Of a DNA stretch of 64,000 nt, positions 6,488 through 51,749 are shown one piece after another. The translations under genes were made by a program, and so were the position numbers. This DNA is from a virus (taxonomy: Duplodnaviria; Caudoviricetes): positions 72,969 to 136,968 of IMG/VR virus record IMGVR_UViG_2926558313_000004; one strand, written 5' to 3'. The notes under the pieces were generated by a model, which was given only the letters and a program-made list of their open reading frames with translations, was not told where the DNA came from and ran no database searches. Numbering within the stretch: position 1 is the first letter of the stretch; each line of letters begins with the position of its first letter.

Positions 6488-8701
6488 TTAACTCCTCCAT
6501 TTGTTTAACTCTTCTTTGCTTGCTATTAATTCATATCCCCTATTCCCTTCATGCTTTATCAGCCATCTATCTTCAATTAACTGATGCATTAATTCCTTTA
6601 TTACTTCTGGTCTTGTTCTCATCTCTTCTCTTAATTTTCTCGCTCTTACTTCCCCTGTGCTAGCGATAATGCGTTTAATTTTATCCAATGGACTTTCTTC
6701 TACTACTTTCGGATTTAAATACCGATTCGATTTTACATATGAGATAATTTTTTTATATGTTTTTTCTTCCTCATTAGCATTTAAAGAAATTACCGCACTT
6801 TGAAATTGCTCAAATGGTTTGATTTGACCTTTTAACTTCATGACTCCATGCCCACTACCCAATAATTCAAATGGAACACCTGTTCCAAAAACTGTTCTGT
6901 ATCCAGAAGAGGTTGATAATCTGAAACTAATCTTAGATGGAATATTGTCTTTAATTATGGTATCAACAATATTTTTATTTGGCTGCTGAGTAGCTATTAT
7001 TAAATGGATTCCAGAAGCCCTTGCTTTTTGACTTATTTTTTGAATACTGTCAACTATTTGGGGATTAGCCATCTTTAAATCTGCGAATTCATCAATTATG
7101 ATTACGATATATGGAAGAGGATCATGGGGATTTTTTTGATTATAACTCTTGATGTCTTTAGCACCTCTCTTTTTAAATAATTCATATCTTTTTTCCATTT
7201 CTTGAATAACCTCATTCTCCATCTTTAACGATGCCTCTTTTGGATCTGTAATTACTGAATTAACGTGAGGAAATTCTTTAAACTGTACTAGTTCTACTTG
7301 TTTTGGGTCAATAAGATAAAGATTAAGGCGACTAGGTGGAACAAAAAGGAGCATTGTTAAAATAGCTTGATTTAAAAAATTGGATTTTCCTCCTCCTGTC
7401 TCACCAGCTATAAGAAGATGGGTTAAAGAAGTCAAACAACGAAATATCGGTTTACCAAATGAATCGAGTCCGACAAAGAAAGGAATTTCCAACTCTATGA
7501 GAGAATTTTGTGTCTTTTTATCAGATAATACTTCACTGAGATAAATCGCATTCTTGTTTTGTTTGGCAATTAAAAACCCAATGGTGTCAGGTTTATCACC
7601 TTGTTCAATTGACAGTGAAGATACTCCAAGTGACACCTGAACATCTTCCTTTTTTGCAATAATTTTTGAATAAACTAAGTCTTTTGGTATGAAGTACTGA
7701 CACCTAATAAAACTAAGACCATCCATTTCATGATCTAATTTCATATCTTTTTCACTTTTAATTACACCTATTCTTTTTAATGTTTTTGGTATTTGTAGAG
7801 AAATATCTCTATATTCATTATTTATACTTTTATTATTGTTCATTGGCAATAGATCAAATATATTGTTTGCGGCATTAACACCCTCCTTTTCTTTGTGCCT
7901 CCCTTCTTCAATTATATCTTTTGTGAGTTCTATTGTATTGTCGTAAGCCAAGAACGAATTTATCTCATTTCTGCTCAAATATTGTTTTTCATAAAATATT
8001 GATGAACCACTTTTAATTTCTTCTATGAAAAAACAGTTCATTCCTGACAGTTTTTTGCACGAATATTTTATTAAGTCTTTAATTAATTTTATTTGGCTAT
8101 TGTTGTTGCTATCGATACCTATCATACATTCAAAACTATATTGATCATCAATTATTTTCTGCTCAATTTCTTTTATAGGACTTCTAATCTTAGATTTTGC
8201 TTTAAGGTTTAATATGTTCCAAATTGACCGATAAAAACCACTTTCTATCGCCAACTCATTTCCGGTGATAAAGTGCTCATATTTTTCTATCTCAGTATCT
8301 CTCCATGCCCCACTCCTTTTTTTAATCATTAATTTAATTATTATTTTATCATTGGGATCAAAAACATGGAGATTACTAAGCAAAGGAGAAATGAGTGAAA
8401 GACCATCTTCTACACCTATCGGAAAGAGCGAGTCTTCTTTCAATTTCAATCGAATCCAGTTGGCAGCATTAATATTAACTCCGTTTACAACTTCACTCAA
8501 TCCTCTGTTTTTCCAGAAATAAGGAGCATGAAGGTAAGACTTGCTTTCGTGTTTATTAATTTCCCATATAACTGACACATGTGCCATTTCTAAGTAGTGA
8601 TTATCAAATAGCTTTTCATGATCTTTAATCATGAAATAACCATATGAATATTTTTCTTCGTCGTTCACATTTATAAAATTTGACAATATTTTATTTAGCA
8701 C
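6488..8701 (-). CDS. FtsK/SpoIIIE-family DNA translocase
   Basis: HLLIAGETGGGKS, LIDPKQVEL, IIIDEFADL, KARASGIHLIIATQQP, LLGSGHG; C-terminal wHTH-like gamma domain. Confidence 0.9.
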   Translation of the reverse strand: MLNKILSNFINVNDEEKYSYGYFMIKDHEKLFDNHYLEMAHVSVIWEINKHESKSYLHAPYFWKNRGLSEVVNGVNINAANWIRLKLKEDSLFPIGVEDGLSLISPLLSNLHVFDPNDKIIIKLMIKKRSGAWRDTEIEKYEHFITGNELAIESGFYRSIWNILNLKAKSKIRSPIKEIEQKIIDDQYSFECMIGIDSNNNSQIKLIKDLIKYSCKKLSGMNCFFIEEIKSGSSIFYEKQYLSRNEINSFLAYDNTIELTKDIIEEGRHKEKEGVNAANNIFDLLPMNNNKSINNEYRDISLQIPKTLKRIGVIKSEKDMKLDHEMDGLSFIRCQYFIPKDLVYSKIIAKKEDVQVSLGVSSLSIEQGDKPDTIGFLIAKQNKNAIYLSEVLSDKKTQNSLIELEIPFFVGLDSFGKPIFRCLTSLTHLLIAGETGGGKSNFLNQAILTMLLFVPPSRLNLYLIDPKQVELVQFKEFPHVNSVITDPKEASLKMENEVIQEMEKRYELFKKRGAKDIKSYNQKNPHDPLPYIVIIIDEFADLKMANPQIVDSIQKISQKARASGIHLIIATQQPNKNIVDTIIKDNIPSKISFRLSTSSGYRTVFGTGVPFELLGSGHGVMKLKGQIKPFEQFQSAVISLNANEEEKTYKKIISYVKSNRYLNPKVVEESPLDKIKRIIASTGEVRARKLREEMRTRPEVIKELMHQLIEDRWLIKHEGNRGYELIASKEELNKWRS

Positions 8702-8714
8702 AATGTCCTCTCCT

Positions 8715-9797
8715 TTACCTAAGAAGTTTTTTACCAGCTAGCTTTACCCAACCAGCGGGTGTAGATAAATTAAGAGACTTTAATGTAAACATAGCTCTAT
8801 ATCCTTTTAACATCTCATTTATCCCTTTTTCTGAAGTAGAAGCCAAGTTCTTGATGAATCTTGGAGGATGGCTCATACGCCAGAAACCACCTGCTACGAT
8901 AATTATGCGAAAAATAGCTTCCCATCCACTGGAAGTCCCCCTAGTAAGAAAAATAAATAATCCTATAAAAGTTATAAATAGAGCATAAGTGAGTTGAACA
9001 ATACAAATATCTTTAATGTTCTCATACCACATAAAAAAGTATTTTTTTGTATCGGTAAATATCCAAGATGACAGTGCAAGAGGCGTAAGGGCGCTTAAAA
9101 CAAACAAGTCAAAATATCTTCGACCGTTTTGTAAAGCAACAGGTATTAAAGTTCCAATCAATAAAACGTCAAAACCAATGAAAGCTAATGTATCTAGTCC
9201 TGACAGAGTTGAAGCTGGCAAATCAGAAGAAGTAGACATGCCACTATAACCTAATTTAGTGATTAACCTAGATAGTTGACTGACATAATAAAAGACTTTT
9301 TCAAGAATAAATGGAGAAAATCCCATTCCTACGATTACAATCGCAAATCGTTTTACGATATCTGAAAAATTATCTGCTTTCTGCTGTCGATTAAACATAA
9401 GCTTTACCGAATTTAAGATAAATCCTATTGTCACCAATCCTATTGATACTCCCGAAAAAATCATTATGTTTTCCCTAAAATAATCATTAGTAAAGATAAA
9501 TGGAGGTATTTGTAGTACGATGCTTGAAATAGCTTCGTAACACCAGCCAAGCAAATCAATACTAGCTACAGCAATTTTTGAATTTAAATCAGCAATCCAA
9601 TCAAAAAACTGATTCAATTTGCTTCCAATTTCATCCCATAGATCTAATTGATCTTTTATACGCTCTCCGATCATTAGCCCCTTCTCTAATCCCTCATCAT
9701 TTTTGCTCAAATCCCAAATTATTTGAGCTGGTGACTTGTATTTAGTGTGAGCAAAAGCTTTTTCACAATTAAGTAGTATAAATGACATGGAAAACAC
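8715..9797 (-). CDS. Polytopic membrane protein, VirB6/TrbL-like; true start probably further upstream
   Basis: About 6-7 hydrophobic segments; RYFDLFVLSALTPLALSSWI...YFFMWYENIK pattern typical of VirB6-like proteins. Confidence 0.55.
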   Translation of the reverse strand: MFSMSFILLNCEKAFAHTKYKSPAQIIWDLSKNDEGLEKGLMIGERIKDQLDLWDEIGSKLNQFFDWIADLNSKIAVASIDLLGWCYEAISSIVLQIPPFIFTNDYFRENIMIFSGVSIGLVTIGFILNSVKLMFNRQQKADNFSDIVKRFAIVIVGMGFSPFILEKVFYYVSQLSRLITKLGYSGMSTSSDLPASTLSGLDTLAFIGFDVLLIGTLIPVALQNGRRYFDLFVLSALTPLALSSWIFTDTKKYFFMWYENIKDICIVQLTYALFITFIGLFIFLTRGTSSGWEAIFRIIIVAGGFWRMSHPPRFIKNLASTSEKGINEMLKGYRAMFTLKSLNLSTPAGWVKLAGKKLLR

Positions 9798-9829
9798 AGA
9801 AACAGGGATGATTATTTTTTTATATTTAT

Positions 9830-10366
9830 TTATAAGGGAAGTTGAAAGTTCGGCAATCCTCCCAACAATAATTTTGCCACAGTTAGTAAAATGATGATTA
9901 CGGTGGGCGTTATTAGTATTTGTGTCATCCCTTTGATTGAATTTGATGCTGATTCCATTGCTTTTTTGTGATATTTCTCGTTTGGATGATAGTAATAAAG
10001 TCGAGTTATAAGAAGAACCAAAGCCCCGATCCCTATTCCAATTATTACTGAATAGTCTATTAGCATTTTGACTACTTCCATTAATTCTGTCGAGGTGGGT
10101 AGACCTGTTATTTCTGCCACTGATTTCTCTTCTGCACTGGCTTTGATTGGTTTTGTAATTGCTGTGGTTGATAGGAGCAGTGGAATGGTGTTTTCCAATA
10201 TTTTTTGTTTGCTGTTTGGTAGCTTTTTCACCTCCTTTCTTAGTTGATCCACTAAAAAACTTAGTTGATTTGAGTTTCTGTCACTAATTGTTATAACCTT
10301 ATTTGGCTTCTTGTACTTGACGTAGCTCTTCAAGGACTTCGCTTGCATGTTCACCTGTATAGACAT
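9830..10366 (-). CDS. Membrane protein with VirB2/TrbC pilin-like C-terminal half
   Basis: RBS AGAGGAGG before ATG at 10366; internal AxA cleavage-like site (KASAEE) followed by two TM helices. Confidence 0.5.
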   Translation of the reverse strand: MSIQVNMQAKSLKSYVKYKKPNKVITISDRNSNQLSFLVDQLRKEVKKLPNSKQKILENTIPLLLSTTAITKPIKASAEEKSVAEITGLPTSTELMEVVKMLIDYSVIIGIGIGALVLLITRLYYYHPNEKYHKKAMESASNSIKGMTQILITPTVIIILLTVAKLLLGGLPNFQLPL

Positions 10367-21844: not shown

Positions 21845-22114
21845 ATGAGTTCATACAATAATTTCAGTCAAAAAAGTAGACAAAAAAAAGATTTTACTTA
21901 TGCAAATTTTGATCATCCTGATAGTCATGATCCAATAAAAAAAGAACAAATTAATATTGAGTCTTGGAGGAAGTTCATTTCTTATTATAGACATCATATT
22001 GATGAGTTTGCGATTGATATTTTAGGTATCAACCTTTATCCTTTTCAAAGGTTAATATTAAGGTCTATGGCACGGTATAAAGAATCCATGTTTATTGCAA
22101 GCCGAGGGCTGGGT
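21845..22114 (+). CDS. terL: Terminase large subunit, exon 1
   Basis: LYPFQ motif; ends ASRGLG, the first half of Walker A. Confidence 0.9.
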
Positions 22115-23308
22115 AGATTATGTAAGTATTATAATTATCATAGTCTCACAATTTAAATAAAGGAGATGAGGTTTAATGAGTAGGTATACCTACAATAAAA
22201 ACTTCTTTGAAAAAATTGATTGTGAGAAAAAAGCTTATTGGCTAGGCTTCCTGTACGCAGATGGATGTATTAATAGATATTATCGAAATGAAAAACTAAA
22301 TGCGATGTCTTTAGAAATAGGATTAAGTGATAAAGATAGAGATCATTTACAGAAATTCTTAAGTGATATAGAATCAAATGTACCTATAAAAAGCAAAGTT
22401 GTAAAACTTAACGGAGAAAAATATAATTCTAGTAAAGTTGTAGTTTGCAACACTAAAATGTGCAGAGACTTAATTAAACTGGGATGCACTCCTCAAAAAA
22501 GTTTAACTTTAACATTTCCGAATGAAAATATCCTTCCTAAACAATACATTAGAGATTTCATTAGAGGGTATTTTGATGGAGATGGCTGTATATTTTTTGG
22601 AGAATATGATAGTTTGAAATCTTTAAAAATTATAATTGTTGGTACTTTTAATATGGTAAAAGCTATAGAATATCACTTTAAAGAAAATCAAATAAACATT
22701 AATCCTATGATCAAACAAAAAGGCAAGGCATATCAAATGGTTATCTCTGGATTCGATAATATTAATGAAATACATACATATTTTTATGAAAACTCAACTG
22801 TTTATTTAAATAGAAAACATGAGAAATTTACCGAGTCATTAAATTATATAAATCAAAATAGGAAAAGTACATCTGGTAAAACAGGTGTATATTTCGACAA
22901 AAGAAGTAATCGTTGGGTTGCTTCTTTTTGTTTTGACGGTAAAAGAAAACAATTAGGGAGTTTCATAAATAAAGAAGATGCAATTAAAGCTAGAAAAGAA
23001 GCCGAATCATTATAAATTTGATAACTATATTATTTATTTGCCCACTTAAGTAGTAATACTTAGGGAAAATAATGCGGAATTAAGCGTGGAGTCCTCCAGT
23101 AATTAGGGTAACACGAACCGAAGGCTAGATGTAAAAGTTTAGTCAGGGGCAGAGCATAGGAGATGAAACTGTATTTATAGAATATAATTCTCCCAAGAGT
23201 CCGCATCATCCCACTAAACTTAGGTTTAAGGATGAAAATGTATGCCGACCTTGCACGATGGAAAAGTGTAAGAAGTAGAGGATAAAAAGCCTTTACGATA
23301 ACAATGTG
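22115..23308 (+). mobile_element. Group I intron with homing endonuclease in terL
   Basis: 5' exon TGGGT pairs with IGS GCCCA (23040-44); P3 ATGCGGA/TCCGCAT; P7 GCATA/TATGC; terminal G23308; splicing restores ASRGLG|KSYL. Confidence 0.92.
22176..23015 (+). CDS. Double LAGLIDADG homing endonuclease with C-terminal AP2 domain
   Basis: YWLGFLYADGC and FIRGYFDGDGC motifs; SGKTGVYFDKRSNRWVA...LGSF..KEDAIKARKEAE. Confidence 0.92.
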   Translation: MSRYTYNKNFFEKIDCEKKAYWLGFLYADGCINRYYRNEKLNAMSLEIGLSDKDRDHLQKFLSDIESNVPIKSKVVKLNGEKYNSSKVVVCNTKMCRDLIKLGCTPQKSLTLTFPNENILPKQYIRDFIRGYFDGDGCIFFGEYDSLKSLKIIIVGTFNMVKAIEYHFKENQININPMIKQKGKAYQMVISGFDNINEIHTYFYENSTVYLNRKHEKFTESLNYINQNRKSTSGKTGVYFDKRSNRWVASFCFDGKRKQLGSFINKEDAIKARKEAESL

Positions 23309-34870: not shown

Positions 34871-35896
34871 GTGAATTTATTGGGAAAGATCAAACGAATA
34901 AAATATTTTACTCCTGAAAAGAAATCCCTCATTTCAGAAGAAAATAGGAAGTTATATGAGAAATATTTAAAAAGCTCGATTATCAAAAATAAAGATGTGA
35001 AAGAAACTACCTATAAGGTTTATCAAAATTACATGGATCACTTTCTAGTTTATTTAGCTGAAGAATGGGATAATATCGGCTTATATAGCGAAGAATTCAT
35101 GGAAGAAGCAGTAGATATTATGGAAGGATTTATTGGTTTTTGCCAAGAAACTCTATTTAATAATAAGAAAGTAATAAACACTAAACTTAGTACTGTTTCA
35201 AGTTTTTATTTATGGAGTCTTAAAAGAGGATTGATTGATAGACACCCATTTGATAAGAAGCTTGAAAGAATGAAGGGTGCAAACGACGAAAAAATCAGAG
35301 ATTCATATTATCTAACAGAAGAGCAAGTTCTACAAATCCAAGATGGCTTATTGAATGATAAACGATATGATTTTCAGGATAGGCTTATTTGGAATATAGC
35401 TCTAGACTCCGCTAATCGGGTTGGCGCTCTATCTCGCTTAACTATCTCTTCCTTAGATCTAGAGAATATGGTATTTGAAAATATAAGAGAAAAACGAGGC
35501 AAAATCGTAGAAGTTGCATTTGAAGAGGAAACTAAGCTATTAATTGAAGAATGGCTTGAAATGAGAAAAGAGATGGATAATTTAGAAATTGATTCATTCT
35601 TTTTAACTAAATATAAGGGCAATTATAAACCAATGGATTATGGAACTATTCAAAATCGAGTTAAAAAGATAGGTACTATTATTGGAATTGAAGATTTTTA
35701 TGTTCATACTATTCGCAAAACAAAGTTGAACTTGCTATATGAACAGACTGGGAATATCGACATGGTTGCTGAATGGGCAAACCATGAATCTATTGAAACT
35801 AGTAAGAAACATTACATAAAACCAAAATCTAAGGCTCAGCTTAGACGTGAGATGAGAGAATTAATTAAGAAAAATAGAGATGAAAAGAAGAAATAA
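34871..35896 (+). CDS. Tyrosine recombinase (YomM-like)
   Basis: Catalytic R (ANRVG), K (EKRG), HTIR, NH and Y (KHYI); N-terminal SAM-like domain. Confidence 0.9.
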   Translation: MNLLGKIKRIKYFTPEKKSLISEENRKLYEKYLKSSIIKNKDVKETTYKVYQNYMDHFLVYLAEEWDNIGLYSEEFMEEAVDIMEGFIGFCQETLFNNKKVINTKLSTVSSFYLWSLKRGLIDRHPFDKKLERMKGANDEKIRDSYYLTEEQVLQIQDGLLNDKRYDFQDRLIWNIALDSANRVGALSRLTISSLDLENMVFENIREKRGKIVEVAFEEETKLLIEEWLEMRKEMDNLEIDSFFLTKYKGNYKPMDYGTIQNRVKKIGTIIGIEDFYVHTIRKTKLNLLYEQTGNIDMVAEWANHESIETSKKHYIKPKSKAQLRREMRELIKKNRDEKKK

Positions 35897-41850: not shown

Positions 41851-41962
41851 TATGAAGGCTCATACTCGTGAAGTATTGAGGATGAAATAGAGCGTATAAT
41901 ATACTAGTAAAAACCTCCCATTTTGTCGTATAATGGTAGAATGACGGATGGGAGGTGAAGAA

Positions 41963-42721
41963 ATGAATATATTAAGTATCTTACATACTTTTGAGAACTT
42001 AACTAATAAAGAAAAAGAGCGACTTTTAAAAGAATTTAAGGTGAAGTCGTTTGTTGAACTCCACTTGAAAATTAATGAATCATTGAAAAAAACTCTAAAT
42101 GTAATTGAAAATCAAGATTTAATTAATGCATCAAAATTCGTTAGGTGGAATGATGATTGGAATGAATATGGAATTTACGGAAGTAAAAGAGAAGTCTTGA
42201 AAGAAGTAGCTTCCAAAACCTATAGTAGAGGTAGAATTTTATTCATTGACTTCGGTCATCACAACATAGGTAGAGAGTTTTCGCATAATCATGCAGGAGT
42301 CGTACTAAAAGACTTTGGTTCAGTTATAGAAGTATTGCCTATAACATCGGACAAAGGTAAGAAATTTTCCAGCGATATTGAAAAAGCGATTATTCGAGTA
42401 AAGAAAGCCGATTATAATCAGTTTGATAATAATTCAATTTTGTTAACACATCAAATTCAATCAATCTCTAAGAATAGAATTATCAAAGACTTACACAAAA
42501 CAATAGCTAAGACAGAATTAATGGTTCAGATTGAAGAAAGACTATCCTTCACTTATGCTCCTTACTATTCCAAAAAACAAAATGATGAAATAAACTCATT
42601 ATCAGAAAAAGTTTTGCAATTAGAAGAAGAAATTCGTATTATGAGTGAATTAACTAAGGGAATAACTGAAGTAACTACTAGTGAAAAGTTAATCGCTTCT
42701 CATAAAGAAATAGTTGACTAA
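41963..42721 (+). CDS. PemK/MazF-family endoribonuclease with N- and C-terminal extensions
   Basis: RGRILFIDFG..NIGREFS..HAGVVL...VLPITS...QIQSISKNRI; RBS GGGAGGTGA before ATG 41963. Confidence 0.85.
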   Translation: MNILSILHTFENLTNKEKERLLKEFKVKSFVELHLKINESLKKTLNVIENQDLINASKFVRWNDDWNEYGIYGSKREVLKEVASKTYSRGRILFIDFGHHNIGREFSHNHAGVVLKDFGSVIEVLPITSDKGKKFSSDIEKAIIRVKKADYNQFDNNSILLTHQIQSISKNRIIKDLHKTIAKTELMVQIEERLSFTYAPYYSKKQNDEINSLSEKVLQLEEEIRIMSELTKGITEVTTSEKLIASHKEIVD

Positions 42722-42964: not shown

Positions 42965-44214
42965 ATGAATGAAGATTTGAAGTTGCTGATTACAGCAGGG
43001 ATTAATACTGGTACATCTGTAAGGGAAATCAATAATTCAATTAAACAACTGCAGAAAGTTGTTAATCAAAAGAAATTAAATTTAAATATTAAAGTTAATC
43101 AAGATACTTTAAAGCAAATTGAAATGTTTAATACACGGATGAAGGCGCTGGGAGATCAAGCTTTAAATACACGGAAAGTTATAGAAGAAGTCACCTCCCC
43201 CACTGGCGCAAAAGTAACAAGAACTCACTGGGAAGGTGTAGGTGGGGCATTTTCTGAGATCGAATCAAAAGCCAAGCAGACTCAGAAATCAATGGCTCAA
43301 ACATCGGAAGTAGCAAAAGAGACTAAAAAAGAATTTGATTCAATAGCAACATCTACTCAAAAAAATGAGAAATCAGCTCAAAAATTTAACTCTGAAATTC
43401 AAAAAACAGAGAATTTAGTAAAGCGTACATCACGTTTGAATTCTGAAGGTAAAAAGGTTTGGGATGAGACATATCAAAGCGCTTCAAAGGCACGGCAGGA
43501 AGTTGTTAAATATAATGAACATGGTGAACAAACCAATAAAGTTTACACTGAAAATTATAATAATTTAAGAAAACTTTCTCAGGAACGAGCTAAGTTGAGA
43601 CGTGAATTGGTTGCAATGCAATCAGATGGTCGTATTTCTCAATCTCAGTTTAATGATTTATCTAGTAGATTAAATACAAGCACTAGCCAAGTTGCTTTGA
43701 ATAAATATAAAGAACAGATGAAGTCATTAACTACAGTTACAAGCCAAGCAACAGCTAATCAAGCTAAATTAAATCAAGAGCAAGGTAAATTTAGAATTAA
43801 TTTAAATCAATTACATAATCAAGGAAAAATTACTGAAGATCAATTAAGACAATTCAGTAATGCGGTTAATACTACAAAGTCAGTCGGACAAGTTAAAAGG
43901 CTATCGCAAGAAATAGATAAGCTAAGAGTGAAGGCTTCCAGTGTGTCTTCTACTCCACTAACTCAATTTGATCTAGATTTAGCAAGAAGGCAATTTGATA
44001 ATAAAGCAAGTGAGGCAATTAGACAATACCCATCTATTGATAAACGGGCAATAGCTGACCTGCAAAATCAGTTTAAATCACTAGAAGTAGGAACAGATAA
44101 CGTAAGAAATAAAATAAGAGATTATAACATGTCTCTAACGGAAACTGTCAGTCAGACTAAACGTGTGACTGCTAATACTAATACAATGGCTGGGGCATTC
44201 CAGAATGCAATGGT
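42965..44214 (+). CDS. Tape measure protein (YomI/CwlP-like), exon 1
   Basis: RBS AAGGAG before ATG 42965; coiled coil; ends AFQNAM-gt. Confidence 0.85.
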
Positions 44215-44511
44215 GGAATATCGCCGTCTAGCTTAGTAATAGGCTAGATTATGACAGGGGAAAATCGGTGAAGGCTAAGTCGTAAGATATGCTAATACCG
44301 AGGTAAATATTAAATGTAAAAGTTTAATATCACCGTAACGCATAGGTCTTGAACCTGTGTTTTTATCCACAGAATATAATAGACCCACGAGTCTCCTGTA
44401 CCCTATCGATTATTCGAGGGTAAAAATGTATGCTATCTCATCATGAATCAACATGATTCAAAGGAGGAAACTCCGAGGGAGTAAAGATAAAAAGCTTTAC
44501 TGTGAAAAATG
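44215..44511 (+). ncRNA. ORF-less group I intron 1 in the tape measure gene (297 nt)
   Basis: P1 ATGGT/GCCGT; P3 ACAGGGGA/TCTCCTGT; P7 GCATA/TATGC; terminal G44511; restores AMV-KFPIWM. Confidence 0.88.
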
Positions 44512-44931
44512 GAAGTTCCCTATCTGGATGGCAGCCAGTACCGCTTTCTTTGGTACGATCAGAAGTTTCCAAAATATGTTAACACAAATTATCGAGATCG
44601 ACAGTCAAATGACCTCATTAATGAGGGTATCCAATGGAGAAATCGATAGAAATCATATTCTTCAGCAAAGTGTTGATTTGGCAACGCGATTGGGTAATAC
44701 AATAAGCCAAATTAACGCTGGGCTTGAAACGTTCGCCAGACAAGGCTTTAGAGATGATGGGCTAATTGCCATGACGGAAGCATCTACCTTATTTTCCAAT
44801 ATTTCGGAAATGGATGTTGACCAAGCGGCAAGTGGTCTAACTGCTATAGCTATGGGCATGAAGGAAATTAGCGATACAGATATCATGGTTGCGGTTGATG
44901 CCATAAATGAAGTCGATAATAATTTTGCGAT
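44512..44931 (+). CDS. Tape measure protein, exon 2
   Basis: KFPIWMAAST...FARQG...NEVDNNFA, TP901-type TMP core. Confidence 0.88.
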
Positions 44932-45218
44932 TTGAAGAAGTCGCCTATATTGGTAACAATATAGTGATAACTCAGTGAACCCTATTGCTCAGGGGTGTAC
45001 ATTATTGTGCTAACGGTGGAAGTCTAAGTTATTTTAATACTTAATAAAATAATATGATAATACCGTGCCAAGCTTGAAAGGTAACTTTCTTGAAGGTGTA
45101 ACGACTAATTCTTAGGAGGGAAAGATGAGCTGCCCTTCGAAGCGCTGAGAATCCTTTTTAAAGGATTATGATATAGTCTAACCCCTATTAAATATGTCGA
45201 AAGACAGGGTATTATATG
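44932..45218 (+). ncRNA. ORF-less group I intron 2 in the tape measure gene (287 nt)
   Basis: P1 GCGAT/GTCGC; 6-bp P10 GAAGAA/TTCTTC; P3 CTCAG/CTGAG; P7 GACTA/TAGTC; terminal G45218. Confidence 0.92.
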
Positions 45219-45354
45219 TTCTTCTCAAAATATTGTTCAATCTATCCAAAAGTCAGTAGGTGCTGCAGAGACATTTGGTGTTTCACTGCATGAGCTAATT
45301 GGTTATACCACTGCTATTGGAGAAACTACGAGGGAATCTGGAAATATCATCGGT
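45219..45354 (+). CDS. Tape measure protein, exon 3 (136 nt, absent from the ORF track)
   Basis: SSQNIVQSIQKSVGAAETFGVSLHELIGYTTAIGETTRESGNIIG, a conserved TMP segment. Confidence 0.9.
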
Positions 45355-45590
45355 GAAAAGTTGCTGATGTAAAATTCTCACTTATTGACTTGGACGCCCT
45401 AACGTTTAGACGAGGGTAACAGGGGCGAAGTTTAAATACACGCTGAACGACTGAGTGTGAGAACGCTATTAAGCATAGCGAAGCGACAGTCTGAACTTCT
45501 ATGGAGACATAGAGAGTAAGGTTGAAGCGCCTTACCGCCAAATATAGTATTTGGTCAGTAACCTTTAAACTAGGTGAAAGTAACAGCTTG
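45355..45590 (+). ncRNA. ORF-less group I intron 3 in the tape measure gene (236 nt)
   Basis: P1 CATCGGT/GCTGATG; P3 TTCTCAC/GTGAGAA; P7 GACTG/CAGTC; terminal G45590; restores ESGNIIG|NSLKTIFSRI. Confidence 0.9.
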
Positions 45591-48500
45591 AACAGTCTTA
45601 AAACAATATTTTCCAGAATCACCACAATGGATGGTTCAATTGATGCATTAAACTCAGTTGGTATAGCTGTACATAATATGGAGGGCGATGTTCGTCCAGT
45701 AGCAAATATATTAGATGAATTAGGCAGTAAATGGAGTTCCTTGAACTCTCAACAACAGCAATCTATTGCGCTTCAAATTGCCGGCAGATATCAGCTCTCG
45801 CGCTTCTTGGTTTTGATGAATAACCATTCTAGAGCCATCGAAGCTACTAACACAGCCATGAATTCCGCAGGATCTGGAATGAGGGAGAATGAACAATACT
45901 TACAATCATTAGAAGCCCGCATAAACAGATTTAAAAATTCGTGGACTGAAATGGCTATTACTGTCGGAGACGCTTTTCTGTCTGATGGTATTGTAGCATT
46001 TTCAGAAACTATGGCTACAATTTTATCTTCTAGTTCAGATATCATTAGTGTAATTGGTTTTCTGCCTCCAGCTCTTGGTGCGGCAACAGTGGCAACTGTA
46101 GCACTTAATTCTTCAATGAGAACCAATATAACGACCGCCGCAGCTCAAGCGGGAACGCTAACTACACTTAGAGGTATAATTTCAGGTGTAGGTGCAAGTG
46201 CAACAGCAACTGGTGCAGCTTTAGCAACTATGGGACGTTTCATGATTGGAGCCTTACCGCCTGTTGCTCTGATAATGCTTGGTAGCTTTGCATTAGAAAA
46301 GCTCTTCTCAGCTTACATGAAGAATAGAGAAGAAGTAAGGCAGCTAGAGCAAGAAATGAATAAGTCCACCGAGGCAATTAGAAGTCAAGGTGACACAGTT
46401 GATGAACTTGCAAATAGGTTCCAAGAACTTGAAAAATTAAAGCAAACAACTGGTTTAACAAATGAACAGGAAGAGGAATTTGTAAGTCTACAGAATCAAT
46501 TAGCAGAAATACTACCTACTGTAGCTAGTGGATTAGATGAAAAAGGGAACAAGCTGATTGAAAGCTCTGATTTACTACAACAGGAAATTGACCTATTAAA
46601 AGAAAAAATTGAACTGGAGAAAGAGCAGAATAGACTGAATTTAGATTCAAACATTAATAGTCTGCAATTAGATATCGATAAAGAAATTAATAATATTGAT
46701 AAATTGAAAAAGCATGTAATTTTTTACGAAGAAGAAATTTCTAGATTGCAAAATGACAATACTGCCTCTGCTTTCGACATTGAATGGAATCAACTGCAAT
46801 TATTTGCTACAAAACAAAAAATCATTGAAGCAGAGCAGAAAATTCTAAATCTTAATAAGCAAATAGGTCAAACAGTTGCCGATACTGTTGAAGATGCTTC
46901 TAACTTAAGTAATCTGGATTTTGACTGGATATCTGAGATCAAAAAGAATGGATTCGATGGCATTGATTTAAATAATGATGAATTAATTAAATTCACTAAA
47001 ACCCTCTCCTCTATTCGCAAATCTTTCGGTGAAGCATTTTCAACCGATCAACTAAAAACTTTTTCTCAAGAGCAGTTGCAAATCCTCTCCCACATGTCAG
47101 TTAATCTTCAAAATGGGACAAAAGATTTTAGTGATTGGACAGATGCTTTAAAAAATGCAGGGTTCTCATCTGATGATGCAGAATCAGCTATTAGTGCGTT
47201 AAATAGAGCTGTTGAGGAAACTGCTCATGTACAAGAAATGGTTGATCTTGGTGTATTTCGTGATTTAGAAGGAACAATTCCTGTAAAAACTACGAAAGAA
47301 TACAATGAAGTTATAGAAGAAGGTATTCCTCTTTATATTGAAGTCGATGGGGTTATGCAGGAATTAACTGACACTTTAGACTCCCAATCCGAATCCATCG
47401 ATCTCACTGAAAAATCCTTCGAAGAACTCACTCAATACATAGCCGAAAAAACTAACCCTACCCTATCCGATTACATGGCACTGGCATCAGCCACATCAGA
47501 TGAACTCGACATCCTCTCCTCTGCTCACAAGGAATTAATCACCGACGGTAAGCTTTCTCAATCAAGTCTAGATAAGCTAATCGAAGCTTACCCAGACTTC
47601 ATCAAAGTAACTGGCTTATCGACAGATAAGATGCTTGAATTTATAACAGCTTCTAAGCAGCAACGTATGCAAGCAATTCGTGATCAAAAAGAAATGACTA
47701 GAGCAACCATCGAAGAAACTGAGAAGCGAATTGCAGAGATGCAAAAAGAAATCGACGCAATGGGAGCGCGGACTCTAGCTCAAATCAGAAGTTATAACGC
47801 TCAAATTACTAGTCTAAGAAATGCATTGTCTAACACGACTGACCGAAGCGAACAAGAAAGACTCTCTAATGAAATCACTCGCATTAGTGGAGTCATTTAC
47901 GATTTAAATACTGCCTTCCAAGAGCAGCACACTATTCTAAGTGACTTAAAAAAAGAAAATGAGGAAGCAACTAATTCATACACTTACCTCGACTATGCAG
48001 TAAATGATTTAGCTGAATCTTATCATAAGAATACTGAAGCAAACGACAAAAATAATAAATCTCAAAAAGACTCAATTTATTTAGCTAATAAGCGAGAAGA
48101 AGCAATCAAGGCTCTTAATCGTGAACTAACCAGACAGCAAAACGCTCAAAATAACTTACTAAAGGGATCTCAAAGATGGTTAAAAGCTAAGCAGGAAGAA
48201 ATCAACCTCACTCAAAAACTAAGAGAAGAATTAGCTAATCAGAGGGCGGAATTAGAAAAACTACAAAATGCAGGAATCGTTCAACAATCAGGAGTAGTAA
48301 ATTCTTCTTCGATGAATGGTGGATCGTCTTCATCGTCTTATAGCGGTCAATACGCTACTTATATTAATAAAGCCGCTGCACAATACGGAATTGATCCAAA
48401 TCTAATTGCGGCTGTCATTCAAACAGAATCTAATTTCAATTCAAATGCCCGTTCCTCTGCCGGAGCACAGGGATTAATGCAATTAATGCCTGCTACCGCT

Positions 48501-51500
48501 AGAGAACTTGGAGTTACCAACATAAATGATCCTGAACAAAACATTATGGCAGGAACTAAATACCTCGCACAGCAACTTGAAAGATTTAGCGGAGATATCG
48601 AAAAAGCATTAGCTGCTTACAATGCGGGTCCCGGCAATGTTCAGAAATGGGTTAATAATGGTCAATGGGGTAATATACCGTTTAAGGAAACTCGAAATTA
48701 CATTCCAAAAGTCTTAAATGAATACGGTAAATTTAATAATAATTCATCCTCTACAAGCGGAGTCTCTAATGATGTAGCCTCATATTATCTTAATAATTTC
48801 CGTCAAACTTCTCAGTTTGGTATGCGTAATGGACGTATGCACAATGGAATTGATCTCGCCCCAATGGAAAGAGGTAAACAAGGCGATCCAATTAAGGCTC
48901 TTATGGGTGGAGTTGTCAAATCAGTTGGTTATCAAAAAGATGGAGCTGGCTATTATATTACGTTAGAGCATATGGATGGTTCAGTAACTAAATATTTCCA
49001 CCTTATGGAAATGCCTAGTTTAAAAGTTGGTCAACAAGTACAAGGTGGTCAGCAAATAGGTAAATTAGGAAACACTGGACGCTCTTCAGGTGCTCATCTT
49101 CATCTTGAATATTTGCAAAATGGTAAAGCCGTCAACCCTTTACCCGTTCTTCAGCAAATAGCACAAGGCGGAGGCGATTTTGCCCAATATCAACAAGGTC
49201 TTGCTAATCAAGCCCAAACAATTGAAGATTTAAAAGTTCAAGAACATCAGCTATATTTGCAGCAGCAAAAAATTCAAGAAGATTATTTAAATGGTTTAAT
49301 TGAAAATCACAATCGTTCAATAGAAAGATTAGAGCGTTCAATTCAAGAACAGCAGAACATTATCGACCAAAATCCAGAAGGCTCAGCAGCCCGCAACCAA
49401 GCATTAAATCAAATTAACTACCTTCAAAGCTTAATTGATAAGGAATTAAATGAAATCCAGTATAAGGCTGGACAATACTCAAACAGAACAGATATTTCTG
49501 AACAAGGTAGATATGATTTTGCCGTACTTCGTGATGAAACTCGACTACGCAGACAAGGTATAACCATAGAGCAAGCTGAACGTAATGCCACACGCACTGA
49601 AGAAAAAGTTACTCAGCTACAAGGATTAATTGAACAGCAAAACCGATCCCTTCAACACGTTGAAAATGAATTAAACAAATTAGATCCCTACTCTCCTGAA
49701 TATCGTGAAATGTTAGATGATCGACTTAAACACGAAAATGAAGCTCTTCGTCTTATGAATCGAATTAAAGAAGAATATACTAAAGCGATTGAATCAGGAA
49801 AATTAACTGAAGCTTCAATTAATCAATTTAAACAAGCGTTGTCGGATACGAACTTAGAAATCGAAGAACAATCTCGTTTAATCAAAGAAATAGATGAACT
49901 TTTTGCAGAGAGTGTCATTGGTGAATATAATCGAGAATTAGATAAACTCTCTTACCAATATGACTTATCAACAAAGACAATGGCTTTATACAAAGAAGGC
50001 TCAAAAGATTACATGCTTGAACTGAGCAAGCAAGCGAGTATAACAACGGAGCAAATCAATAAAGAAAAAGAATTACAACAAACCCTTCTTGAACTTTTAA
50101 GAACTAAAGATTTATCTATACAGAAGCAAGAAGAATATAATGAAATGATAAGAACTTCAGTTATTAGACAAAAAGAATTTCAACTCACTCTTCTAAACAC
50201 AAGAGAATATATTCAAAATCAAATTGCAGATCAATTAACTAAACAGCAAACTCAATATTTAGATACTTTGAAAAATAAGTATGATGAACTAAATAAAACT
50301 CTAGAATCATTAATTAAACCAGAGGATATATTTAATGCTAATGAATTTAAGCACAGCATCAATGAGATTATTTACGAACTAGAGCGAATTGATGGTCAAT
50401 TTAAGAAAAACGCCATGTTTGTAGAATCTGCATCTGGAGTATATAAAAATCTCGATCAAACGAGAAAATCAATTCTTGATATGGCAAACGCCATTGAAAA
50501 AATGGCTAATTCCACATCTAATAATCAGTCTGAATTAGAGAAAATGATTCGCTCGCAATCTCAATATGCCAATCAAATTAAAGATGAAATTGAACTTATC
50601 GATCAGAGAATTCGTCAAAGAGAGCTTGAACAGAAGAAAATTGAAGATTCTCTTCAAAATCAAATAGATCTCAGACAAAAAGAAATAGAGCAATTAGATG
50701 AACAATATCAAAAAGAAGATAGACTCAAACGATTACGTGATCTAGAAGAAGAAATGGATAAAGTGTATAACGATAGACGTTTTGAGTATATTGACGCAGA
50801 AGGAAATGTCATCCTTACCTATGACAGAGGTCGCTACAATGAATTAGTCAAACAACGTGACGAGATGCTTGAGCAATACGAGCGTGAAGATATTAAAAAA
50901 GCCCGTCAAGATGAAATTAATGAACTCCAAGAAAAGCTAAACAAAACGAGAGAAATTCACAGGGCAGAAATAAATGACATCAATCTTCAACGCAATGCTT
51001 TAAACACTTTATACAATGCTTTAGTTGCAAACACTAGAGATAAAATGGCTCAGCTTAAATCATTACAAGACCAACATCTCGAAGACACAAGAAAGAATTG
51101 GGATGACATTATTGAATCCGTCAGAGAAGGAACAATGACCTATTCTGAATTAATGAATAGCTGGTATGGATCTGCATTAGAAGAGATGAAGGACTTTGGG
51201 TTGGAAGTGGCTGAAGAAGTCAATAAAATAAAGGATTTATACAATCAATTATTTGAAGTTCAAGTTCCGGAGCCTCCAAAACAAAAGAGTGGTAGTAGCG
51301 GAAGTAGCAGTTCTAAAACTGGAAGTACCATCGGAAGAGTTATAGGTGGTTTTGTAGGAGGAGGAGCAGGTGGCGCTGTTGGTGGAGCAATCGGCGGCGC
51401 TATTGGCTCAATCAGAGATAAAATCACTAAAAAACATGATGGCGGCATTGTCGAGGGTGGAAAGCCAAATAAAGTCACACAATTGATGAATACCCTCATG

Positions 51501-51749
51501 AATGCTAATGCAGATGAGCAAGCAATTTTAGCATTGAAAAATGAATTATTCTCTCCTGAAGAAAATCTTACCAAATACGCTCTTCCTAACATGAGAAATC
51601 TAATGAGTAAGGTTACACCTAATTTAAGTTTACAACCACAAACAACTGAAACTCATTACCATATTCATAAAGACATCTTAGTAAAAGCGGATAATCCATA
51701 CGATATGCTTCAAGGTATTCGTACTTTTGTAAATACAAATAAAGGTTAA
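45591..51749 (+). CDS. Tape measure protein, exon 4, with SLT lytic transglycosylase and M23 peptidase (spliced total about 2654 aa)
   Basis: IQTESNFN...GAQGLMQLMP...AAYNAG...ETRNY; HNGID...GNTGRSSGAHLH; long coiled coils. Confidence 0.92.
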   Translation, partial: NSLKTIFSRITTMDGSIDALNSVGIAVHNMEGDVRPVANILDELGSKWSSLNSQQQQSIALQIAGRYQLSRFLVLMNNHSRAIEATNTAMNSAGSGMRENEQYLQSLEARINRFKNSWTEMAITVGDAFLSDGIVAFSETMATILSSSSDIISVIGFLPPALGAATVATVALNSSMRTNITTAAAQAGTLTTLRGIISGVGASATATGAALATMGRFMIGALPPVALIMLGSFALEKLFSAYMKNREEVRQLEQEMNKSTEAIRSQGDTVDELANRFQELEKLKQTTGLTNEQEEEFVSLQNQLAEILPTVASGLDEKGNKLIESSDLLQQEIDLLKEKIELEKEQNRLNLDSNINSLQLDIDKEINNIDKLKKHVIFYEEEISRLQNDNTASAFDIEWNQLQLFATKQKIIEAEQKILNLNKQIGQTVADTVEDASNLSNLDFDWISEIKKNGFDGIDLNNDELIKFTKTLSSIRKSFGEAFSTDQLKTFSQEQLQILSHMSVNLQNGTKDFSDWTDALKNAGFSSDDAESAISALNRAVEETAHVQEMVDLGVFRDLEGTIPVKTTKEYNEVIEEGIPLYIEVDGVMQELTDTLDSQSESIDLTEKSFEELTQYIAEKTNPTLSDYMALASATSDELDILSSAHKELITDGKLSQSSLDKLIEAYPDFIKVTGLSTDKMLEFITASKQQRMQAIRDQKEMTRATIEETEKRIAEMQKEIDAMGARTLAQIRSYNAQITSLRNALSNTTDRSEQERLSNEITRISGVIYDLNTAFQEQHTILSDLKKENEEATNSYTYLDYAVNDLAESYHKNTEANDKNNKSQKDSIYLANKREEAIKALNRELTRQQNAQNNLLKGSQRWLKAKQEEINLTQKLREELANQRAELEKLQNAGIVQQSGVVNSSSMNGGSSSSSYSGQYATYINKAAAQYGIDPNLIAAVIQTESNFNSNARSSAGAQGLMQLMPATARELGVTNINDPEQNIMAGTKYLAQQLERFSGDIEKALAAYNAGPGNVQKWVNNGQWGNIPFKETRNYIPKVLNEYGKFNNNSSSTSGVSNDVASYYLNNFRQTSQFGMRNGRMHNGIDLAPMERGKQGDPIKALMGGVVKSVGYQKDGAGYYITLEHMDGSVTKYFHLMEMPSLKVGQQVQGGQQIGKLGNTGRSSGAHLHLEYLQNGKAVNPLPVLQQIAQGGGDFAQYQQGLANQAQTIEDLKVQEHQLYLQQQKIQEDYLNGLIENHNRSIERLERSIQEQQNIIDQNPEGSAARNQALNQINYLQSLIDKELNEIQYKAGQYSNRTDISEQGRYDFAVLRDETRLRRQGITIEQAERNATRTEEKVTQLQGLIEQQNRSLQHVENELNKLDPYSPEYREMLDDRLKHENEALRLMNRIKEEYTKAIESGKLTEASINQFKQALSDTNLEIEEQSRLIKEIDELFAESVIGEYNRELDKLSYQYDLSTKTMALYKEGSKDYMLELSKQASITTEQINKEKELQQTLLELLRTKDLSIQKQEEYNEMIRTSVIRQKEFQLTLLNTREYIQNQIADQLTKQQTQYLDTLKNKYDELNKTLESLIKPEDIFNANEFKHSINEIIYELERIDGQFKKNAMFVESASGVYKNLDQTRKSILDMANAIEKMANSTSNNQSELEKMIRSQSQYANQIKDEIELIDQRIRQRELEQKKIEDSLQNQIDLRQKEIEQLDEQYQKEDRLKRLRDLEEEMDKVYNDRRFEYIDAEGNVILTYDRGRYNELVKQRDEMLEQYEREDIKKARQDEINELQEKLNKTREIHRAEINDINLQRNALNTLYNALVANTRDKMAQLKSLQDQHLEDTRKNWDDIIESVREGTMTYSELMNSWYGSALEEMKDFGLEVAEEVNKIKDLYNQLFEVQVPEPPKQKSGSSGSSSSKTGSTIGRVIGGFVGGGAGGAVGGAIGGAIGSIRDKITKKHDGGIVEGGKPNKVTQLMNTLMNANADEQAILALKNELFSPEENLTKYALPNMRNLMSKVTPNLSLQPQTTETHYHIHKDILVKADNPYDMLQGIRTFVNTNKG

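Follow-up and report, generated by a model that had tools for sequence, protein, structure and literature searches.

Group I introns have been described before in the tape measure genes of prophages. Tourasse and Kolsto (2008, PMC2504315) reported them at three sites, termed TMP-IVS1, IVS2 and IVS3, in prophages of the Bacillus cereus group; in their report, the prophage of B. cereus E33L carries two tape measure introns together with a terminase intron, introns that resemble one another occupy different sites with adapted P1 and P10 helices, none contains a complete endonuclease gene, and in-frame stop codons lie near the intron start. A comparable density of introns is known from Staphylococcus phage Twort, in which the tail-tube gene orf142 contains three group I introns whose splicing, as well as exon skipping, has been demonstrated experimentally (Landthaler and Shub 1999, PMC22036, as cited in PMC11878797), and from phages of the Bastillevirinae, in which the DNA polymerase and terminase genes contain two or three group I introns, with an average length of 802 nucleotides (nt) (PMC11878797). 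Here we analyse a window of 64,000 nt (IMG/VR record IMGVR_UViG_2926558313_000004; G000:C5:72971-136970 in our numbering), in which a single giant gene for the tape measure protein is predicted to be interrupted by three short group I introns.

The gene resembles the TMP-IVS1-3 set in that endonuclease-incomplete group I introns reside in a prophage tape measure gene and are accompanied by a probable terminase intron. However, the B. cereus-group genes are reported to have at most two introns per gene (PMC2504315), whereas the gene in the window has three within 1.4 kb, and its host reading frame is that of a much larger tape measure protein of the SPbeta/E3 type, with 2654 amino acids (aa) and with SLT and M23 domains. 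Twort orf142 is likewise a tail gene that contains three group I introns, but it is a different gene of a virulent myovirus with experimentally shown splicing, whereas the splicing of the gene in the window is predicted from sequence. The Bastillevirinae share with it the presence of several group I introns in phage core genes, but the introns in the window are much shorter than the 802-nt average given there; the word "tape" has 0 occurrences in PMC11878797. The closest sequenced phage is Geobacillus virus E3 (KP144388), in which the counterpart of exon 2 is 47.4% identical. Its tape measure gene is recorded as two coding sequences (CDS), GP42 and GP43, and the gap between them contains a homolog of our intron 2 that is not marked as an intron in the record; E3 has this one intron, at D552↓N553 (arrows mark splice or insertion sites, in the numbering of the spliced protein from the window), and the gene in the window has three. 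The three-intron tape measure gene is one more instance of what is already known from Bacillus prophages, and it adds to the picture of the most conserved tape measure and terminase motifs being repeatedly colonised by group I introns.

The four exons (Table 1) total 7965 nt, i.e. 2654 codons and a stop codon, with no internal stop; all of the 5' exons end in T and all three introns end in G. The coordinates of the exons, the length of the joined frame and the intron sizes of 297, 287 and 236 nt had been given in a preliminary description of this DNA, and all of them were reproduced exactly on recomputation, together with the junction peptides AMVKFPIW, NFAISSQN and NIIGNSLK of the joined frame. 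Its statements that the frame stops after 423 codons without splicing, and that automated annotation would report fragments, hold as well: plain table-11 calling of open reading frames (ORFs, minimum 40 aa) returns pieces of 452, 160 and 2075 aa, and exon 3 is not represented by a separate ORF in this list. The 160-aa and 2075-aa ORFs start inside the ribozyme sequences, and the homology in the former begins only at residue 21, which is the exon boundary (the first full exon codon, at 44513).

The identification of the product as a tape measure protein, also proposed in the preliminary description, agrees with the domain content and with the profile matches. The PhageMin_Tail domain of Pfam (PF10145) is divided: exon 2 encodes its first half and exon 4 its last third, followed by the SLT transglycosylase (118.8 bits) and Peptidase_M23 (84.7 bits) domains. 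Exon 1 has a TMP_3 match of 29.7 bits, which is under the 41-bit cut-off, and the E3 and G032 homologs (the latter from a related genome) align with it from residue 1. The tape measure profile PHROG 4211 (2625 positions) is matched colinearly by exon 1 (196-546), exon 2 (588-725), exon 3 (727-771) and exon 4 (772-2584, E 1.8e-135), and PHROG 14917 is likewise colinear over 316-449, 451-495 and 496-781. In these profiles, junction 2 misses just the split codon and junction 3 misses nothing.

The positions of the junctions were further compared with intact homologs, namely the proteins of Bacillus phage vB_BcoS-136 and Mammaliicoccus phage phi36, for which tblastn gives query coordinates that are contiguous across the frame-changing gaps. 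When the donors were fixed and all G-ending acceptors within windows of 150-200 nt were scored on homology, the best ones were those that place the exon starts at 44512, 45219 and 45591. A multiple alignment with uninterrupted homologs is free of gaps at each of the three junction peptides; at junction 1, for instance, AMVKFPIWMAA corresponds to AMVKFPVWMGA in phi36 and to AMARVPVWMAS, AMQRIPIWMAG and ALVKFPIWMAS in others. Empty sites are also found at the DNA level, in phi36 for junction 1, in the related genome G035 and vB_BcoS-136 for junction 2, and in G035, G032, E3, vB_BcoS-136 and phi36 for junction 3. All three introns are inserted where the alignment shows its most conserved motifs. 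Taken as a whole, the gene is one in which four exons encode a predicted tape measure protein of 2654 aa. A megablast search with the first 5 kb of this gene against phages gave no match. Two short contigs from one DNA data set are identical to 44745-45117 and re-cover the exon 2/intron 2 boundary only, while two further DNA data sets queried for the intron region gave no match. Among the data sets listed as containing 43800-46200, none is an RNA run.

The U.G pair in P1, the P3 and P7 helices and the terminal G that had been ascribed to all three introns were located, and the pairings were then checked by a script. In intron 1, P1 is formed by AUGGU↓G and CGCCGU with U.G at the splice site, P10 has 7 of 8 pairs with the first bases of exon 2, and stems P2, P3, P4, P7 (GCAUA/UAUGC), a P7.1/7.2-like hairpin, P8 and P9 follow. 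In intron 2, GCGAU↓UU pairs with AAGUCGC, again with U.G at the splice site; P10 is complete (6 of 6 pairs, UUCUUC with GAAGAA), and there are P2 with a GUAA loop, P4, P6, P7 (GACUA/UAGUC), a P7.1/7.2-like hairpin, P8 and P9. Intron 3 has P1 between CAUCGGU and GCUGAUG, with the same U.G pair, and is without P2; P3 (UUCUCAC/GUGAGAA), P7 (GACUG/CAGUC) and P8 (CGCUAU/AUAGCG) are followed by P9 to P9.2. P3, P4, P8 and P9 stems are present in all three introns. Introns of subgroup IA are characterised by one or more extra hairpins, P7.1/P7.2, that follow the 5' strand of P7 and precede P3'; introns 1 and 2 have such a hairpin, and intron 3 has none. In-frame stop codons are TAG at nt 20-22 of intron 1, TGA at nt 2-4 of intron 2 and TAA at nt 16-18 of intron 3.

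The earlier suggestion that the cores of the introns differ is borne out both by their pairwise identities (0.61, 0.54 and 0.56, close to the means of 0.59, 0.53 and 0.54 for shuffled controls) and by the separate relatives that each of them has. No ORF with a family match was found in introns 1-3, which had been described as ORF-less; a 92-aa antisense ORF over intron 3 (45347-45625) has no PHROG match and was taken as a chance occurrence. A repeat family was also excluded, each intron being single-copy in the genome.

Over 97% of its length, intron 2 has 68.6% identity to the 304-nt gap between the two CDS of the E3 tape measure gene, and the consensus fold that it forms with the E3 copy and intron c of G032 comprises P1, P2, P2.1, P4 to P9 and, among these, P7, with the U.G pair at the splice site kept in 3 of 3 aligned homologs. 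At the DNA level, intron 1 is similar to sequences that interrupt the tape measure genes of Clostridioides phage LIBA6276 (locus L013, 1486-1807) and Staphylococcus phage 6ec (locus L014, 740-1705), each located between two CDS that resemble halves of a tape measure protein; in 6ec an HNH ORF lies between the two CDS. Intron 3 has a 231-nt homolog at the identical site in G286, the genome of a member of another family of the same order (1129-1359 of locus L017 = G286:C3:322751-326155, minus strand). The two copies are identical at 179 of 229 aligned nt (78%), whereas the flanking exon DNA is identical at 91/130, 162/286 and 168/298 positions (56 to 70%). That the intron is more conserved than the exons around it suggests that intron 3 was transferred horizontally. 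Its 5' part is also common to an intron of Bacillus phage C30-1, and the introns related to those in the window that exceed the Rfam cut-off are this one (84.1 bits with RF00028), one in G035 (80.8 bits) and two in G032 (64.5 and 62.2 bits).

Several observations weigh against the assignment of the three gaps to group I. At the gathering threshold, Rfam reports no group I intron in the window. The gathering score of RF00028 (50 bits) is a threshold of detection, not a defining property, and with E-value reporting in a 4-kb search the model matches, on the plus strand, intron 2 (36.3 bits, E 7.9e-7), intron 3 (24.4 bits, E 0.003) and intron 1 (21.7 bits, E 0.019). In a scan of the whole window the only group I matches are introns 2, 3 and 1, with E-values of 1.3e-5, 0.048 and 0.3, of which the latter two are weak, and in a search of the whole genome intron 2 alone is found. 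For intron 3, Rfam aligns P1 wrongly, and the P10 of this intron, read by eye, has only 3 bp; in intron 2 the P3 of Rfam is mismatched, and the alternative P3, GUGCU/AGCGC, was also read by eye. Finally, the counts of base pairs with changes on both sides (20/72 for intron 2 with the E3 copy and G032 intron c, 23/63 for intron 1 with the LIBA6276 element, and 11/64 for intron 3 with the G286 copy, where P8 is changed on both sides in 5 of 6 pairs) come from two or three sequences each and from RNAalifold structures predicted from the same sequences. These double-sided changes lend support to all three folds, short of proof. Rfam also gives no match in the E3, LIBA6276 and 6ec loci, though homologs of introns 2 and 1 sit there. 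Based on the helices and on the comparison with homologs, each of the three gaps is a predicted group I intron.

The records of related genes are affected in the same way. The tape measure gene appears as GP42 and GP43 in E3, as a "minor tail protein" and a "tapemeasure" in 6ec, and as an "ATPase" and a "hypothetical protein" in LIBA6276, with no intron marked in the latter two records either. Since such genes are reported as fragments and the Rfam threshold misses the introns, predictions of prophage completeness and of tail length will be wrong unless the colinearity of exons is checked.

Table 1. Exons, introns and insertion sites of the tape measure gene, and the interruption of the terL-like gene. 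An arrow marks a site between two codons or residues.
Feature	Position	Strand	Details
Tape measure exon 1	42965..44214	+	1250 nt, 416 codons + 2 nt; ATG start, GGAG 8 nt upstream
Group I intron 1 (predicted)	44215..44511	+	297 nt, codon V417, phase 2
Tape measure exon 2	44512..44931	+	420 nt; PhageMin_Tail begins (PF10145 positions 2-90)
Group I intron 2 (predicted)	44932..45218	+	287 nt, codon I557, phase 2
Tape measure exon 3	45219..45354	+	136 nt, 45 full codons
Group I intron 3 (predicted)	45355..45590	+	236 nt, between codons 602 and 603, phase 0
Tape measure exon 4	45591..51749	+	6159 nt including stop; end of PhageMin_Tail, then SLT, Peptidase_M23
terL-like (YonF-like) intervening sequence	22115..23308	+	1194 nt, within Walker A motif GLG↓KS
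Insertion sites, window	V417, I557, 602↓603		numbering of the spliced protein from the window, used for all sites
Insertion sites, G035	M423, 577↓578		two introns, one of 80.8 bits
Insertion sites, G032	552↓553, 570↓571, I590, 708↓709		four introns
Insertion site, E3	552↓553		one intron
Insertion site, G286	602↓603		homolog of intron 3

We propose that the tape measure gene is very probably expressed through the ordinary self-splicing of three unrelated, selfish group I introns. What the sequences show is how the exons are arranged, which helices the RNAs can form and how paired bases covary among homologs; that splicing takes place, and that the stop codons have a role, is what we infer. Following late transcription, each intron would fold, its guide would form P1 with the end of the preceding exon, placing U.G at the splice site, and an external guanosine would attack the 5' splice site, whereupon the freed exon end, aided by P10, would attack after the terminal G and the exons would be joined. 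The in-frame stop within the first 22 nt of each intron may keep ribosomes out of the ribozyme core. According to this scenario, the introns would be selfish or relic mobile elements located where the protein has its three most conserved motifs, tolerated because they splice, rather than a device of the phage.

An alternative, raised in the preliminary description, is that the three splices in the tape measure gene and the one in terL act as a checkpoint that ties the production of virions to ribozyme folding or to the supply of guanosine, and that the 423-aa product may have a role of its own. In favor of it are four interruptions in two essential late genes, a frame that stops after 423 codons unless it is spliced, and an exon 2 whose 420 nt could be skipped without loss of the frame; exon skipping is also among the results reported for Twort orf142 (PMC11878797). 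However, no sign of regulation came to light, the guide of intron 2, GUCGC, is unmatched at the end of exon 1, which makes the skipping of exon 2 unlikely, and a selected device would not be so patchy: close relatives are without introns at these sites or have others elsewhere, and among the 60 phage records listed, out of 150 that contain this region, E3 alone has the gene in two pieces. We consider a checkpoint very improbable; the patchy presence, the use of other sites in close relatives and the conservation of an intron beyond that of its host gene fit selfish mobile elements better than a regulatory device.

It is also conceivable that the prophage is decaying, so that at least one of the introns has lost the ability to splice, which would make the tape measure gene, in practice, a pseudogene, as might be read from the low Rfam scores, the lack of endonuclease genes in the tape measure introns and the presence of an IS605-type TnpB gene 1.2 kb upstream. 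Yet the 2654 codons of the joined frame are free of stops in DNA of 33% G+C, all of the core helices are intact, and the differences from the homologous introns are compensatory, not disruptive, all of which renders decay highly improbable. The idea of no splicing at all, with each piece translated on its own and the products forming a tape measure of several subunits, could appeal to the possible start codons of the 452-, 160- and 2075-aa ORFs. Since the latter two start in ribozyme sequences, with homology only from the exon boundary, since exon 3 has none in the list of ORFs of at least 40 aa and since the gaps fold as group I introns, its probability is practically negligible.

Returning to the self-splicing introns as selfish elements, their distribution among related prophages is sparse and irregular. 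Homologs of exon 2 are rare, being found in 6 of the 101 relatives searched and in 5 of the 401 genomes sampled from the order (the genome itself included in both counts). The tape measure genes of relatives have 0, 1, 2 or 4 introns, at other sites; those of G074, G033 and G058 are continuous across the stretch examined. Altogether, five genomes use nine distinct sites within about 290 codons (Table 1). The highest number of introns is in G032 (locus L012 = G032:C1:1618500-1631500, minus strand), where four introns (Rfam scores of 62.2, 64.5, 35.9 and 43.1 bits) occupy ~1.7 kb at about 8290-9945, separated by exons of 54, 59 and 358 nt, and the spliced protein is gap-free against the intact homologs. 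For intron a of G035, a donor after L011:2475, implied by the P1 of Rfam, gave a poor junction and was abandoned in favor of L011:2489-2737, which yields the gap-free FPLWMAAAT.

Six of these introns, i.e. intron 2 of the window, the E3 intron and introns a to d of G032, have common sequence segments and occupy five sites; the copies of this lineage include L002 (E3) 9403-9706 and L012 (G032) 8962-9265 on the minus strand. In each case the guide matches the exon: GUCC and GGAU at 552↓553 (E3 and G032 intron a), GUCGC and GCGAU at both I557 (intron 2 of the window) and I590 (G032 intron c), GCCC and GGGU at 570↓571, and GUGC and GCAU at 708↓709. In particular, the E3 intron lies 14 nt upstream of the site of intron 2 and has the guide GUCC(C) instead of GUCGC. 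Transposition by reverse splicing would be expected to leave such a pattern of matching guides, and it is tentatively possible, though rather doubtful, that the conserved PhageMin_Tail part of the gene offers a single endonuclease-less lineage a landing pad, within which it changes its position by changing its guide. To our knowledge, the natural evidence for transposition by reverse splicing is thin. The gene described here and its relatives constitute a compact natural data set on how introns without endonucleases reach new sites.

The terL-like gene, which corresponds to a gene of phage c-st recorded as a homolog of SPbeta YonF, is also interrupted, as had been noted previously. A 103-aa ORF at 21845 and a 491-aa ORF at 23306 correspond to halves that abut in c-st, and the best homology-scored join, 22114/23309, removes 1194 nt and restores the motif GLG↓KS. 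The intervening sequence contains a LAGLIDADG/HNH-like endonuclease ORF (22176-23015), apparently in the loop of P1, and the proposed guide GCCCA (23040-23044) pairs with the exon sequence UGGGU (22110-22114). Its last 270 nt have P7, P7.1/7.2, P8 and J8/7 segments in common with intron 1. As Rfam gives no match in this intervening sequence, its assignment to group I is based on the likeness to intron 1 and on the reading of helices; we regard it as a likely intron, less firmly shown than the three in the tape measure gene.

The window, with 33% G+C, lies within a 4.5-Mb bacterial genome of 66 contigs and contains the late region of a large prophage resembling SPbeta and E3, in which a portal gene, a head protease, tail proteins, the terL-like gene and the giant tape measure gene are present, the latter being followed downstream by tail fibre and tail protein genes. 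The IS605-type OrfB/TnpB gene mentioned above (PF01385, PF07282; 40490-41755) lies ~1.2 kb upstream of the tape measure gene, and there is no group I match near it. Between the two is a PemK/MazF-like gene (41948-42721); PemK-like genes are found at this place in E3 as well. The block of structural genes also contains a tyrosine recombinase/integrase-like gene (34871-35896), a placement shared by E3 (GP28) and by vB_BcoS-136, in which xerD is located just upstream of the tape measure gene. Finally, a skipping-rope RNA motif (RF02924, 60.5 bits) occurs at 17365-17477 on the plus strand, and a PhoH-like gene (17574-18872) follows 97 nt downstream.

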